In this document: in pieces, positions 12,964-17,913 of the stretch
How the letters are laid out: each line of letters starts with the position of its first letter
How positions within the stretch are numbered: position 1 is the first letter of the stretch
Notes under the pieces: generated by a model
Database searches by the model: none
What the model was told of the DNA's origin: nothing
What the model saw: the letters and a program-made list of their open reading frames with translations, nothing else
Translations under genes and position numbers: made by a program
DNA from: Escherichia phage EC120
Direction: 5' to 3' (one strand)
Length of the DNA stretch: 44,544 nt
Sequence record: ON185580.1

Positions 12964-13104
12964 TAGGTCGGCTTAGTTCGGCCTATGATTGTAAAGTGTT
13001 GAACCTTATTGTGCATCTTGCACAACCCGATGCTATATCGGGCTTTCTAGTGAGTACATGCTTGTGCTCAGTACAAAGCTAACTGACAATAGGAGACTAA
13101 ATAA

Positions 13105-13911
13105 ATGGCACGTGGTGATTTTGATTTTGGTGCTCAGGTTACTAAGGCTGAAGGTAAAGTATTTAAGAACCCTGAAGTTGGTGATCATGAAGCAGTAATC
13201 TCTGGCATCATTCATGTTGGTTCCTTCCAAGATATTTTTAAGAAAGGTAATACCACTGAGGTTAAGAAGCCAGCAAACTTTGTTCTTGTTAAGATTATCC
13301 TGATGGGTGACGACGACAAGAATGAAGATGATTCTCGCATGGAACAGTGGATGGCTGTGCCTCTGAAGTCTGGTGACAAGGCAACCTTGACTAAGTTCCT
13401 GAATGCAGTTGACCCTAAAGAGCTGCTTGGTGGTTTCGATGACTTCATCGGTGAATGCCTGACTGCAACTATGGTTGGCTCTGGCGACAAGAATGATGAT
13501 GGTACTTTCAAGTATGTTAACTGGAAAGGCTTTGGCGGTATGCCTGATAAGTTGAAGAAGCTTGTACTGGCTCAGGTAGAAGAGGAAGGTCTGTCTATGA
13601 CAGGTCATATCACCTTCGACAAGCTGACCAAAGAAATCCTTGATGACATCCCAGCTAACTTGGTGCGTCAATACTTCCTTAATGAAACACCTCGTGGTAA
13701 GAACCTGTCTGTTGCTGGTTCTCACGTAGAAGCAATCATTAAAGCTGCTCGTGAAGAAGACCCAGAGTGGAAGAAAGCCAAGAAGAAAGATGACGAGGAT
13801 GCTACTCCAGCTAATCGTAAATCTCTGGATACTGGTGAGTCTGTTCCACAGGAAGTACCTGAAGCAGAAGATACTCCTGCACCGGAGATGGATGAGGACG
13901 CGGAATATTAA
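13105..13911 (+). CDS. Acidic-tailed protein (268 aa); candidate ssDNA-binding protein
   Basis: AGGAGA RBS; C-terminus ...PEAEDTPAPEMDEDAEY (acidic tail ending in an aromatic residue, as in T7 gp2.5). No direct sequence similarity to T7 gp2.5 recognised, so the function is inferred. Confidence 0.7.
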   Translation: MARGDFDFGAQVTKAEGKVFKNPEVGDHEAVISGIIHVGSFQDIFKKGNTTEVKKPANFVLVKIILMGDDDKNEDDSRMEQWMAVPLKSGDKATLTKFLNAVDPKELLGGFDDFIGECLTATMVGSGDKNDDGTFKYVNWKGFGGMPDKLKKLVLAQVEEEGLSMTGHITFDKLTKEILDDIPANLVRQYFLNETPRGKNLSVAGSHVEAIIKAAREEDPEWKKAKKKDDEDATPANRKSLDTGESVPQEVPEAEDTPAPEMDEDAEY

Positions 13912-13920
13912 GGAGAAAGG

Positions 13921-14139
13921 ATGAAAGTACAAATCGTAACCCTGCACTGCAAGAAAGGTATCACAACGCTCGTAGGTAGCACTTTCCACTCTTTCTCCGA
14001 AGGGGAGATTTATGCTGACCTGCACTACATCTGGCGCGATGGACAGCACGTGGTGAACTACAGCGACCCAGCTACGGGGAAACGCCACGGCGTATCGCTT
14101 CCTGCGCATGACATTGCTCAGGTGAACACAGTTTTATAA
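13921..14139 (+). CDS. Hypothetical protein (72 aa)
   Basis: AAGGAGAAAGG RBS then ATG. Confidence 0.55.
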   Translation: MKVQIVTLHCKKGITTLVGSTFHSFSEGEIYADLHYIWRDGQHVVNYSDPATGKRHGVSLPAHDIAQVNTVL

Positions 14140-14171: not shown

Positions 14172-14194
14172 ATTTACTGGACACTATAGAAGAG
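14172..14194 (+). promoter_or_regulatory. Phage-RNAP promoter (consensus copy)
   Basis: ATTTACTGGACACTATAGAAGAG; expected +1 G at 14189. Confidence 0.75.
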
Positions 14195-14618: not shown

Positions 14619-14624
14619 TTGATG

Positions 14625-14657
14625 CCCTGTCTGCCTTAGTGTAGGCAGGGTCTTTTG
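14625..14657 (+). terminator. Hairpin terminator after ORF 14244-14618
   Basis: 10-bp stem CCCTGTCTGC/GTAGGCAGGG (two G-U pairs), loop CTTAGT, then TCTTTTG; same architecture as the post-capsid terminator. Confidence 0.5.
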
Positions 14658-14682: not shown

Positions 14683-14973
14683 ATGCCGACTATTGAAGAA
14701 CGTTTCCTGATTCACGTGAGCTTCTCATCCATACATCTTGGTTATCTTATCACTATCCTCTTAGGTGAAGAGATTTATCTGCATAACCACTTAATACCAG
14801 AGTATGTATGTCACCGAGATAAGATACACCCTGCTAATTGGGCGAAAGAGTGGCTGCGTGAACATGTGCTGAAGGAGTGGCCTACATGCGACCAAACTTC
14901 GACTTCGGAGCTACAGTATCGGAAGACAATAACCTGTTGCTGTGGCCGACTGAAGGTAATCGAATCGCTTTAA
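14683..14973 (+). CDS. Hypothetical protein (96 aa); overlaps exonuclease start by 88 nt
   Basis: GGAGA RBS then ATG 14683; the long overlap lowers confidence. Confidence 0.35.
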   Translation: MPTIEERFLIHVSFSSIHLGYLITILLGEEIYLHNHLIPEYVCHRDKIHPANWAKEWLREHVLKEWPTCDQTSTSELQYRKTITCCCGRLKVIESL

Positions 14974-15914
14974 TAGATGCTGATATGTTACCTTACATCG
15001 TCGGGTATACAATCAGTGACATGACTTATGTACGAGCTACAACTCGTGTTAAGTCAGGACAAGTCCCATCAATCAAAGATACCCCTGAGTGTAAGCAAGC
15101 GTGTGACCGTGTGAACTCCTTGCTTAACTCTTGGGTGTATGCAGCAGAGTGTGATGCTGCTAAGTTATTCATGACGAAATCAGAAGCTAACTTCCGAGTT
15201 CGCCTAGCCTTCACCAAACCTTATAAGGGTCAACGTAAGACCGAGAAGCCTCCGTTCTTCTATGAATTGCGAGAGCATCTCTTAGAGGTTCATGGTGCAA
15301 TATTGGCAGATGGAGAAGAGGCTGATGACCTCATGAGCATTGCACAATGGGACAGCCACCGCCGCTTCCAGCAAGATACAGGTAACGAGTTCCCTATCGG
15401 TAGTCCAGAGCATAAAGCATTCTCTGATACTTGCATCGTTTCCTTAGATAAGGATTTGATGATTGTTCCCGGTTGGCATCTTCAGCCGGGTCAAGAGAAG
15501 AAATGGGTAGAGCCTATGGGTTGGCTTGAGTTACGCCGTAAGGCTAATGGTCAGGTTAAAGACCTTAAAGGTGCTGGCCTCATGTTTCATTATGCACAGA
15601 TGATTATCGGTGATGATATTGATAACTATGCTGGCATACCTGGACGTGGTGCTAAATACGCCTATGATCTTCTCAAAGATTGTAAGACAGAGAAAGAGTT
15701 GTACATGGCAGTGCTTGGTGCTTACAAGGCTAAGTTCGGACATGGACAAGTTAAGATTAAGAATTACCGAGGTGGTTATCGTATCGGCAAGGCTTTTGAC
15801 CTGATGCTCGAATGTGGTCGCCTAGCTCACATGGCAAGATTCAAAGGTGATATATGGCGAGCCGATAAGAACCCAATCTTGTGGGGGGATGATGCAGAAT
15901 GGTTAGCAAATTAA
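14886..15914 (+). CDS. 5'-3' exonuclease (T7 gp6-like, FEN/PIN fold)
   Basis: IALIDADMLPYIVGY and LDKDLMIVPG motifs parallel recalled T7 gp6 (ILVMDGDWL..., CDKDFKTIP); GAAGGAG RBS; ATG 14886 (track start 14877 is GTG). Confidence 0.8.
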   Translation: MRPNFDFGATVSEDNNLLLWPTEGNRIALIDADMLPYIVGYTISDMTYVRATTRVKSGQVPSIKDTPECKQACDRVNSLLNSWVYAAECDAAKLFMTKSEANFRVRLAFTKPYKGQRKTEKPPFFYELREHLLEVHGAILADGEEADDLMSIAQWDSHRRFQQDTGNEFPIGSPEHKAFSDTCIVSLDKDLMIVPGWHLQPGQEKKWVEPMGWLELRRKANGQVKDLKGAGLMFHYAQMIIGDDIDNYAGIPGRGAKYAYDLLKDCKTEKELYMAVLGAYKAKFGHGQVKIKNYRGGYRIGKAFDLMLECGRLAHMARFKGDIWRADKNPILWGDDAEWLAN

Positions 15915-16309
15915 AATCATCGGAGGTAGCAGCTTATAAGAGGGAACTGCTAGAGAAGCAAGGATGGAAGTGCCCCCTATGTGGCGGCAGTCTCAAGGCT
16001 GTTACTCCTATAAACCGTGTACTTGACCATGACCATGAGACAGGATTCTGCCGTGCTGTTGTATGCCGAGGCTGCAATGGTGCAGAAGGAAAGATTAAGG
16101 GTGTTATCTCTGGTTATGGTAAGGCTGGTAACAACCGTTACTTCCAGCTTCAATGGTTAGAGCGACTATATGAATACTGGAAGTTACATAGTACGCCTCA
16201 GACAGATAAGTTATATCACAAACATCAAACGGAGGCAGAGAAGCGCGAGGTTAAGAACCGTAAGGCACGCCTTGCTTATGCAAGAAAGAAGGAGGTTAAA
16301 GTTGGGTAA
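15899..16309 (+). CDS. Endonuclease VII-type Holliday-junction resolvase
   Basis: CPLCGG...DHDHETGFCRAVVCRGCN matches the T4 endonuclease VII zinc/HNH-like signature. Confidence 0.8.
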   Translation: MVSKLKSSEVAAYKRELLEKQGWKCPLCGGSLKAVTPINRVLDHDHETGFCRAVVCRGCNGAEGKIKGVISGYGKAGNNRYFQLQWLERLYEYWKLHSTPQTDKLYHKHQTEAEKREVKNRKARLAYARKKEVKVG

Positions 16310-17309
16310 GCTTCGCAGCTTGTACAAAGACTCCGAGGTACTTGATGCAATCGAGCAAGCTACCGACGAGAAAGGTAATGTTAATTACAATGAGATGGCA
16401 CGTGTATTATCGTGTCACCCTGTGGGTAAGAAGATTACCCGCCAGTTGGCTCGATACTGGCATGGTCAATTCAAGAAGACCAAGAAGAATGGTGATTATT
16501 ACCAGACCCTTCTGCAAGAAGATAAGCGTATCAAAGAAGAGCGTAAGCTCAGGACTCCTGACCGCTACGAGGATTTGGCTATTGTACCATTGCCTGACTC
16601 GCCTCATCGAAGTGTATTGGTAATCCCTGATACTCATGCACCTTATGAGCATCCAGATACCTTAGAGTTCCTTGCAGCAGTCGCGGCACGTTACCGTCCA
16701 GATACAGTGGTTCACTTAGGAGATGAGGCAGATAAACACGCCCTCTCCTTCCATGACTCTGACCCGAATCTGGATAGTGCTGGCATGGAGCTAGAGAAGG
16801 CTCGTGTCTTCATGCACAAGTTGCACAAGATGTTCCCTGTGATGCGCCTGTGTCATTCTAATCACGGCTCTATGCACTTCCGTAAGGCAAGCGCCAAGGG
16901 TATTCCAGTGCAATATCTTCGCACCTACCGTGAAGTCTTCTTCCCAAATGGAGGTGGCGACCAGTGGGATTGGCAGCATACACATGTTCTTGAGTTGCCG
17001 AATGGCGAACAGGTGGCATTCAAGCATCAACCTGCTGGCTCTGTCCTAGCAGATGCAGCGCATGAGCGTATGAACCTTGTGTGTGGTCACTTGCACGGTA
17101 AGATGTCTGTGGAGTACGCACGTAATACACATGAACAGTATTGGGCTGTGCAAGGTGGCTGCTTAATTGATGAGTCATCCCGTGCATTTGCCTATGGGCG
17201 TGAGTCTAAATACAAGCCAGCATTAGGTTGTGTGGTTATTCTGGAGGGTGTACCTCATATTGTCCCGATGCAAACCAATAGCGACAACCGTTGGATTGGC
17301 AAGATTTAG
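16302..17309 (+). CDS. Calcineurin-like metallophosphoesterase (335 aa from TTG; alternative ATG at 16393)
   Basis: Motifs IPDTHAPYEH (DxH), HLGDEADKH (GDxxD), CHSNHG (GNH-like), CGHLHG (GHxH). Strong AAGGAGG RBS 6 nt before TTG 16302. Confidence 0.75.
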   Translation: MGKLRSLYKDSEVLDAIEQATDEKGNVNYNEMARVLSCHPVGKKITRQLARYWHGQFKKTKKNGDYYQTLLQEDKRIKEERKLRTPDRYEDLAIVPLPDSPHRSVLVIPDTHAPYEHPDTLEFLAAVAARYRPDTVVHLGDEADKHALSFHDSDPNLDSAGMELEKARVFMHKLHKMFPVMRLCHSNHGSMHFRKASAKGIPVQYLRTYREVFFPNGGGDQWDWQHTHVLELPNGEQVAFKHQPAGSVLADAAHERMNLVCGHLHGKMSVEYARNTHEQYWAVQGGCLIDESSRAFAYGRESKYKPALGCVVILEGVPHIVPMQTNSDNRWIGKI

Positions 17310-17326
17310 TTGACACTATAGAACAA
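17304..17326 (+). promoter_or_regulatory. Phage-RNAP promoter (ATTTAGTTGACACTATAGAACAA)
   Basis: Overlaps the TAG stop of the phosphoesterase gene; expected +1 G at 17321. Confidence 0.7.
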
Positions 17327-17409
17327 AGGGCTAGGTAAGACTTTATCGGCTGGCGTATCCAAATGATATTGCACTAGCCCTTGATTGTATAGTGAATGGA
17401 GGATTCAAT

Positions 17410-17913
17410 ATGTCACACTATGAATGTAAGAAGTGTCATAAGCGTTATGATTACTGTACTTGTGGTCAAGAGAAAACATCTTTTAAAGTTGGAGACAAGG
17501 TATTTCGTAATGAAAAAGATTCTATTCCTTGGAATCAATTCTGCAAAGAAGCTGGTATTGACCCTGATAGCCCTGTAACCATAGATGATATTGATGGCAT
17601 TAACTTGTGCTTTCGTGAGGTGAGGGGTATAGGTTGGGATTCCAAAAAATTCAAACTTGCATCTGATAAGTTAGACAACAATATGGTAACTCAGCCTAAG
17701 CACTACGAGTTCTTTGATGGTGTAGAGGCAATCACTATCATTGCCCGCAGTATGACTGAAAAGCAATTCGCGGGGTACTGCATGGGTAATGCCCTTAAGT
17801 ATCGCCTGCGTGCAGGTAAGAAGTTCAATACTGAAGAAGACTTGAAGAAGGCAGATTATTATAAAGAGTTATTCCAGAAGCATCGTCACGAATGTATTGA
17901 TGAGGATATTTAA
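17410..17913 (+). CDS. Hypothetical protein with N-terminal Cys cluster (167 aa)
   Basis: GGAGGA RBS then ATG 17410; N-terminus CKKCHKRYDYCTCG; C-terminal GNALKYRLRAGKK motif of unknown function. Confidence 0.65.
   Translation: MSHYECKKCHKRYDYCTCGQEKTSFKVGDKVFRNEKDSIPWNQFCKEAGIDPDSPVTIDDIDGINLCFREVRGIGWDSKKFKLASDKLDNNMVTQPKHYEFFDGVEAITIIARSMTEKQFAGYCMGNALKYRLRAGKKFNTEEDLKKADYYKELFQKHRHECIDEDI

Follow-up and report, generated by a model that had tools for sequence, protein, structure and literature searches.

A metallophosphoesterase in the replication module of Escherichia phage EC120 is related to actinophage Bxb1 gp47 and may act on DNA

The replication module of Escherichia phage EC120 encodes a calcineurin-like metallophosphoesterase (MPE), and the question that this locus raises is what such an enzyme hydrolyses. 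The window analysed here is the whole 44,544-nucleotide stretch of sequence record ON185580.1, in which the MPE coding sequence occupies positions 16302–17309 of the + strand (335 codons and a stop); its product is the homologue of SP6 gp23 and K1E gp22 and belongs to PHROG 221. An earlier note on this DNA had offered three possible functions, namely an Mre11/SbcD-like nuclease, a protein phosphatase or a phosphodiesterase that degrades nucleotides of host immune signalling, and only the nuclease gains support from the present analysis. We judge the chances to be about even that EC120 MPE works on DNA as an Mn-dependent phosphodiesterase or nuclease, in a module that serves replication and recombination together with host-DNA breakdown.

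Comparison with phage protein families placed the enzyme. The PHROG 221 model, labelled 'metallo-phosphoesterase', matches it over its full length (E 3.4e-105), and the same model matches gp47 of Bxb1 (4.5e-116), gp60 of Gordonia phage JSwag (1.4e-112) and gp23 of KP34 (2.6e-107), as well as gp61 of Pelagibacter phage HTVC111P and gp17 of Nonlabens phage P12024L. When the family profile was aligned over the whole catalytic domain using hhalign, JSwag gp60 scored a probability of 95.6% (E 1e-8) and Bxb1 gp47 scored 85.7% (E 5e-6), while a control phage MPE, D29 gp66, which is a good member of PF00149, scored 0.6%. The result for this control indicates that the relationship to gp47-type proteins is specific and extends beyond shared superfamily membership. 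The family is large, with 2806 relatives in a 90% clustered database and 3136 clusters at 50% identity at E≤1e-3, of which 782 fall at E≤1e-30, and most of its representatives are stand-alone MPE domains of 235–250 amino acids. T7, as had been noted earlier, has no such enzyme: searching its six-frame translation with the family profile found no homologue, the best E value being only 2.3.

The catalytic domain spans residues 103–335 (16608–17306; this and all features below are on the + strand unless stated otherwise) and has the β-sandwich fold of the PF00149 superfamily. The Pfam model PF00149 itself is barely reached, with a marginal score of 21.6 bits against a cut-off of 21.5 and over residues 105–213 only. 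The five ligand motifs (DxH, GDxxD, GNH-like, H and GHxH), of which the earlier note had read all but the single H from the sequence, are all intact and invariant in an alignment of 34 homologues of 48–87% identity, and no loss of metal ligands was seen. Motif I is D110-T-H112 (16629–16637), motif II is G140-D141-E-A-D144 (16719–16733), and motif III is S186-N187-H188 (16857–16865), a GNH-like motif in which serine replaces the glycine and no acidic residue follows the histidine. Motif IV is H242 (17025–17027), a position that aligns only ambiguously with the actinophage members, and motif V is G262-H263-L-H265 (17085–17096). Across PHROG 221 the invariant residues are D110, P114, G140, D141, D144, S149, N187, H188, W222, G262, H263 and H265.

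Directly after motif II lies a loop, H146-x-x-S-F-H-D-S-D-P-N-L-D-S-A-G161 (16737–16784), that is specific to the subfamily, its columns being invariant in the podovirus branch and the whole loop being absent from the actinophage branch. It contains three extra conserved histidine or aspartate residues, is modelled with low confidence (predicted local distance difference test score, pLDDT, 58–77 over residues 141–160) and probably lines the active site. The best structural neighbour of the protein is the proofreading exonuclease DP1 of PolD, by a small margin over generic phosphodiesterases; SbcD and Mre11 are also among the top neighbours, and YfcE and MJ0936 are as close as DP1. No solved MPE was found at E≤10 when either the sequence or the family profile was compared with PDB sequences, and the family is therefore remote from all structurally characterised MPE subfamilies.

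Experiments have been published on two relatives of EC120 MPE, both from actinophages. One of them, Bxb1 gp47, serves the Bxb1 integrase as its recombination directionality factor and is separately needed for phage DNA replication, and a 2025 study identified Mre11 and the editing exonuclease DP1 of PolD as its top structural neighbours (PMC11795197). Close relatives of gp47 include L5 gp54 and A10ZJ24 gp48. The latter protein, Gp48, has phosphodiesterase activity of the bis-p-nitrophenyl phosphate type and breaks down DNA in vitro, whether linear, plasmid or genomic; its expression leads to fragmentation of the host chromosome, and the phage cannot do without it for DNA replication in M. tuberculosis (PMC12287305). 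Substitutions D10G, D41V and H175D each gave inactive mutants (PMC12287305), and in our alignment D10 and D41, the aspartates of motifs I and II, correspond to D110 and D141 of EC120 MPE. EC120 MPE shares its PHROG with Bxb1 gp47, and A10ZJ24 gp48, closely related to gp47, is a DNase; we infer that DNA is the likely substrate of the EC120 enzyme.

A strong ribosome-binding site, AAGGAGG (16289–16295), is separated by a 6-nucleotide spacer from a TTG codon at 16302–16304, and this start overlaps the stop codon of the preceding endonuclease VII gene (TAA, 16307–16309) by 8 nucleotides. Comparison bears out this TTG start, which the earlier note had favoured: across 33 diverse related loci, ATG, GTG or TTG stands at the homologous position, with a ribosome-binding site before it. 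In three of these loci (L029, L033 and L036) an in-frame stop lies 0–3 nucleotides 5' of the homologous start, which excludes a longer, 379-residue reading from the ATG at 16170.

Residues 1–100 (16302–16601) make up the N-terminal domain, in which a three-helix core leads into a basic helix and linker (residues 57–90). The core helices, taken from the model and the homologue alignment, span residues 10–20, 29–37 and 47–57 and include the invariant residues L36, L49, Y52 and W53. The domain is all-helical, is modelled confidently (pLDDT 76–93) and is conserved among homologues; the extension of about 100 residues is a genuine component of the enzyme. With a median net charge of +6 (pI 9.55) the domain is basic, whereas the catalytic domain is acidic (−5, pI 6.3). 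Structural neighbours of the N-terminal domain are the DNA-binding domains of GcrA, Myb, small terminase and Tc3/TnsB, and it weakly resembles Myb/homeodomain-like helix-turn-helix (HTH) domains. It is limited to the podovirus branch of SP6-like, KP34-like, Aeromonas, Vibrio and Pseudomonas phages.

Pfam searches with this domain from 21 homologues gave only scattered sub-threshold matches. HTH domains are found at the N-terminus of other members of the MPE family: P0187 carries HTH_24 (27.4 bits, above the cut-off of 21.9), and HTH_23 matches near the Pfam cut-off occur in P0167 and P0144. These extensions occupy the same position as the EC120 domain without sharing sequence homology with it, and when the EC120 domain was aligned by hhalign with the HTH domains recognised in P0167 and P0187, the score was less than 1%. 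The genomic context of P0187 is a 3.7-kb contig and is uninformative. What appears to be recurrent and independent fusion of HTH domains to the MPE domain is, in our view, the best argument that the enzyme would act on or at DNA, and the modelled N-terminal domain of EC120 MPE may itself be an HTH-type DNA-binding domain.

The arrangement of genes around the MPE was examined next to its promoters. A promoter scan identified 10 SP6-type promoters on the + strand of the window, against 0 expected. One of them, at 14172–14192, heads a unit comprising orf14244, a T7 gp6-like 5'-3' exonuclease (14877–15914), endonuclease VII (PF02945; 15899–16309) and the MPE. The only perfect match to the query consensus, at 17304–17324, overlaps the MPE stop codon (TAG, 17307–17309, within the sequence ATTTAG) and starts the next unit, which contains a kinase and a ligase. 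From the promoters at 14172 and 17304 it follows that the MPE is the last gene of its unit. Within it, overlapping stop and start codons join the exonuclease, endonuclease VII and the MPE, the exonuclease stop overlapping the endonuclease VII start and endonuclease VII, directly 5' of the MPE, being translationally coupled to it. The same order is conserved: among 80 related viral loci with an MPE identity of 42–100%, most have endonuclease VII directly upstream of the MPE, and the exonuclease before it. The location in a replication module that had been proposed for the gene is borne out; exonuclease and endonuclease VII lie upstream and kinase and ligase downstream.

In the mechanism that we propose, the C-terminal MPE domain would hold two metal ions through D110/H112, D141, N187, H242 and H263/H265 and would hydrolyse phosphodiester bonds, as an exonuclease or as a single-strand endonuclease. 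The basic three-helix N-terminal domain would serve as a tether, either to DNA or possibly to a protein partner. Made from a transcript shared with the 5'-3' exonuclease and endonuclease VII, and with stop and start codons overlapping, the MPE may act with these two nucleases on replication or recombination intermediates, on the host chromosome, or on both. The neighbouring kinase, which acts on deoxynucleoside monophosphates (dNMPs), could then re-phosphorylate the dNMPs so released.

Several points weigh against this proposal. Only limited 3' exonuclease activity was observed for Bxb1 gp47, and contamination was not excluded (PMC11795197); earlier work, as it is cited in PMC12287305, did not find phosphoesterase activity for gp47. 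EC120 MPE shares only about 20% identity with the actinophage enzymes, which have glutamine at the position of His112. Our literature search found no experiments on the gene of SP6, K1-5 or K1E, nor an assay of any SP6-, K1E- or KP34-like member. Adjacency alone discriminates poorly, as the whole module is concerned with DNA metabolism. A proofreading role like that of DP1 was considered and rejected, because the family A polymerase of the phage, like T7 DNA polymerase, has its own ExoI (VMDAEAKGL) and ExoII (NFLGYDGLLF) motifs, which make such a subunit unnecessary.

The alternative that survives best, although we regard it as unlikely, is that the enzyme is a phosphodiesterase or phosphatase of the nucleotide pool. 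It would act on mono-, di- or oligonucleotides, for example converting oligonucleotides to dNMPs or hydrolysing in the manner of ApaH or YfcE, and would work with the adjacent dNMP kinase in salvage without cutting polymeric DNA. The gene slot 3' of the MPE is consistent with this, since it holds a nucleotide kinase in many lineages and does so by means of non-orthologous proteins. In EC120 the occupant is a DUF3310 nucleotide kinase (17410–17913; 64% identity to residues 122–194 of T7 gp1.7), and this DUF3310/gp1.7-type kinase is also present in most Vectrevirus loci; in many others the slot holds a P-loop dNMP kinase (phrog_139), and DNA ligase follows these arrangements as well as that of a HAD Pnkp-type phosphatase with a kinase. 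Such non-orthologous displacement was seen at loci L021, L023, L025–L027, L029, L032, L038–L042, L047, L054, L065, L070 and L077. A DUF3310 kinase also adjoins the MPE in Gordonia phage JSwag, and the structural closeness of YfcE and MJ0936 to EC120 MPE points in the same direction. However, the kinase lies in the next transcription unit, under its own promoter at 17304, whereas the MPE is translationally coupled to two nucleases. A DNA-binding type of N-terminal domain, together with true HTH fusions in relatives, would be unexpected for a small-molecule enzyme, and the characterised relative A10ZJ24 Gp48 degrades polymeric DNA.

The order MPE, kinase, ligase could also be read as an end-healing pathway. 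The enzyme would then resemble the MPE domain of Clostridium thermocellum Pnkp and, acting as a 2',3'-cyclic phosphodiesterase or as a 3'-phosphatase, would turn the ends of broken DNA or RNA into substrates for the neighbouring kinase and ligase. In keeping with this, a Pnkp-type HAD phosphatase stands next to the kinase and is the gene after the MPE in Aeromonas phage R1, and in L077 the slot contains a HAD_PNKP protein together with a DUF3310 protein. Nevertheless, the kinase of this module is a gp1.7-type or P-loop dNMP kinase and not a polynucleotide kinase, the ligase is an ordinary replicative DNA ligase like T7 gp1.3, and where a HAD 3'-phosphatase is adjacent the MPE would be redundant beside it. 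We consider end-healing improbable.

Less probable still is that the MPE is an anti-defence phosphodiesterase destroying host immune messengers such as cyclic di- or trinucleotides or cyclic mononucleotides, which was the last of the three functions first suggested. The points in its favour are generic, in that MPE enzymes can hydrolyse cyclic nucleotides and D29 gp66 is cited in PMC12287305 as hydrolysing cAMP; in addition, the invariant loop at residues 146–161 has no assigned role. D29 gp66, however, is not specifically related to the PHROG 221 family. Furthermore, the MPE is a conserved and syntenic core gene across SP6-like, KP34-like, Aeromonas, Vibrio and Pseudomonas podoviruses and actinophages, whereas typical anti-defence genes are variable and accessory. 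The anti-defence enzymes Acb1 and Apyc1 have a 2H-phosphoesterase and a metallo-β-lactamase fold, respectively, in contrast to the calcineurin-like fold seen here, and an HTH-type N-terminal domain would not be expected of such an enzyme. PADLOC gave no match for the MPE, and a literature search found no immune-messenger role for the family. With no positive evidence in its favour, the tempting over-interpretation of this gene as a phosphodiesterase directed against the cyclic-oligonucleotide-based anti-phage signalling system (CBASS) is removed. A Ser/Thr/Tyr protein phosphatase like that of phage lambda (some records label the protein 'phosphatase 2a-like') is scarcely credible, as the PPP signatures GDxHG, GDxVDRG and GNHE are absent, with PDTHAP, GDEADKH and SNHGS in their place, and PPP enzymes rank well below DP1, YfcE and Mre11 as structural neighbours.

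Returning to the DNA phosphodiesterase or nuclease that we favour, two relatives contain inteins, which are typical of enzymes of DNA and nucleotide metabolism. In P0121 (635 amino acids) the intein lies in motif II, after GDE (LGDE/CYPAD to VNGN/CDNHAISFHD), and in P0156 (595 amino acids) it lies in motif I, after DLH (PDLH/CVPTY to ITGN/CPYHH), and carries a LAGLIDADG_3 homing-endonuclease domain. These are two independent insertions at catalytic motifs, and a 637-residue protein of Proteus phage vB_PmiP_RS8pmA in BFVD is probably a third case. On a wider scale it is possible, although doubtful, that PHROG 221, from Bxb1 gp47 to SP6 gp23 and K1E gp22, represents one widespread class of DNA-tethered MPE nucleases. 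Phage replication and recombination would have in them a third core nuclease or, as reported for A10ZJ24 gp48, they would be shredders of the host genome that supply nucleotide salvage and also shut off host defence genes. Substrate targeting might then fall, within the SP6/KP34 branch, to the added HTH-like domain and the invariant HxxSFHDSDPNLDSAG loop.

The phage itself is, by sequence, a K1E/K1-5/SP6-like podovirus of the genus Vectrevirus (Autographiviridae, Molineuxvirinae). Over positions 16100–17500 identity is 99.8% with Escherichia phage EEc4 and with many further Vectrevirus genomes, and 90–95% with SP6-group phages. Comparison with annotated records shows that the reading frame at 16302–17309 corresponds to the coding sequence called 'metallo-phosphoesterase' in VEc3 (gp26) and to K1E gp22; dozens of related records label the gene 'phosphoesterase', 'metallo-phosphoesterase' or 'calcineurin-like phosphoesterase'. 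In one UniProt/BFVD version of phage K1E the gene is split into an open reading frame for the N-terminal domain (A0A2I4Q1Z7, 104 amino acids) and another for the MPE (A0A2I4Q1Y4, 237 amino acids). In the original K1E record, AM084415, gp22 is intact at 1008 nucleotides (L091, 4096–5103), and the split probably stems from another K1E record that has a frameshift or differs through sequencing.

Other features of the locus and its relatives were recorded in the course of this analysis. Besides the perfect site, SP6-type promoters of the window lie at 1803, 8085, 8776, 12478, 12941, 14172, 22636, 38372 and 40034. Within the MPE unit, just after orf14244 and before the exonuclease, there is a strong terminator-like hairpin at 14624–14651 on the + strand (an 11 bp stem with 6 GC pairs, and a T-run), which may attenuate transcription of the nuclease genes. 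On the − strand, an unusually long open reading frame of 358 amino acids at 13033–14109 runs antisense to a conserved + strand gene (13105–13911; phrog_862) and is probably spurious.

Among the relatives, Nonlabens phage P12024L has its MPE beside Erf, a YqaJ exonuclease, SSB and a DUF3310 protein. A linkage of MPE and DUF3310 conserved across all lineages was considered and rejected: it holds for EC120, for JSwag and, with the gene nearby, for P12024L, but the MPEs of D29 and Bxb1 have a DUF6378 protein beside them, the similarity of which to DUF3310 is marginal (BLASTP E 0.046). This neighbour is labelled 'phosphofructokinase' in D29 gp55 (L089, 3546–4001) and Bxb1 gp49 (L004, 6961–7515); it carries DUF6378 (E 1e-30) and the label looks wrong. 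In Vibrio phage Vc1 the slot after the MPE holds a deoxyribosyltransferase-like protein. The taxonomy line of this phage (L005, KJ502657) reads Drexlerviridae, which is probably wrong: its genes run exonuclease–endonuclease VII–MPE–kinase–ligase, and both this arrangement and the 56% identical MPE are features of SP6-like podoviruses.

Neither the MPE gene nor its annotation is new, and PHROGs already places the SP6/K1E-type MPE with gp47-type proteins; the gene itself is ordinary and reveals no new kind of system. Modestly new are the controlled link to the studied actinophage enzymes, the operon structure and translational coupling, the probable DNA-binding nature of the N-terminal domain and the invariant loop at residues 146–161. 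This link ties the MPE of SP6-, K1E- and KP34-like therapeutic phages to its sole experimentally studied relatives, Bxb1 gp47 and A10ZJ24 gp48, and it predicts Mn-dependent DNase activity, a DNA-binding N-terminal domain and a phenotype in replication or host-DNA breakdown.

How EC120 MPE stands to known systems can be seen by taking these in turn. It is not a member of the ligase-associated single-stranded DNA endonuclease family typified by the nuclease MPE of Pseudomonas putida, PdeM (TIGR04123), which it matches with 21.9 bits against a cut-off of 150 and over 33 residues. The minimal phosphodiesterases YfcE and MJ0936 differ in having no N-terminal domain; the NCBIfam model for YfcE (TIGR00040) does not match EC120 MPE at E≤0.1, and only relatives that themselves lack the N-terminal domain match it, weakly. 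In contrast to the small subunit DP1 of archaeal PolD and the B-subunits of eukaryotic polymerases, EC120 MPE has no oligonucleotide/oligosaccharide-binding (OB) fold, the phage has no DP2 partner and uses the family A polymerase described above, and sequence identity is at most 14%.

That the enzyme is a nuclease is favoured by the PHROG shared with gp47, the structural neighbours DP1, SbcD and Mre11, the coupling to nuclease genes and the HTH-type N-terminal domains in the family. Membership of the Mre11/SbcD family, however, does not stand. EC120 MPE is without the C-terminal capping domain, Mre11/SbcD was not retrieved by the family profile, and no Rad50/SbcC partner was found in the annotated 17-kb module or among window reading frames of at least 100 amino acids, not every one of which was scanned with profile hidden Markov models. 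The lack of a capping domain and of an SbcC/Rad50 partner places EC120 MPE outside that family.

The actinophage MPEs (Bxb1 gp47, L5/D29 gp54 and A10ZJ24 gp48) differ from EC120 MPE in their length of about 255 amino acids and in lacking both the N-terminal domain and the HxxSFHDSDPNLDSAG loop. Bxb1 gp47 is, in addition, the directionality factor of a serine integrase, whereas the lytic phage EC120 has no such integrase. What they have in common is the PHROG model, a collinear MPE domain with the D, GD..D, NH and GH.H motifs and a proline four residues after the motif I aspartate, the same top structural neighbours, DP1 and Mre11, and a position within a group of replication genes, close to endonuclease VII and to a small kinase-like gene.

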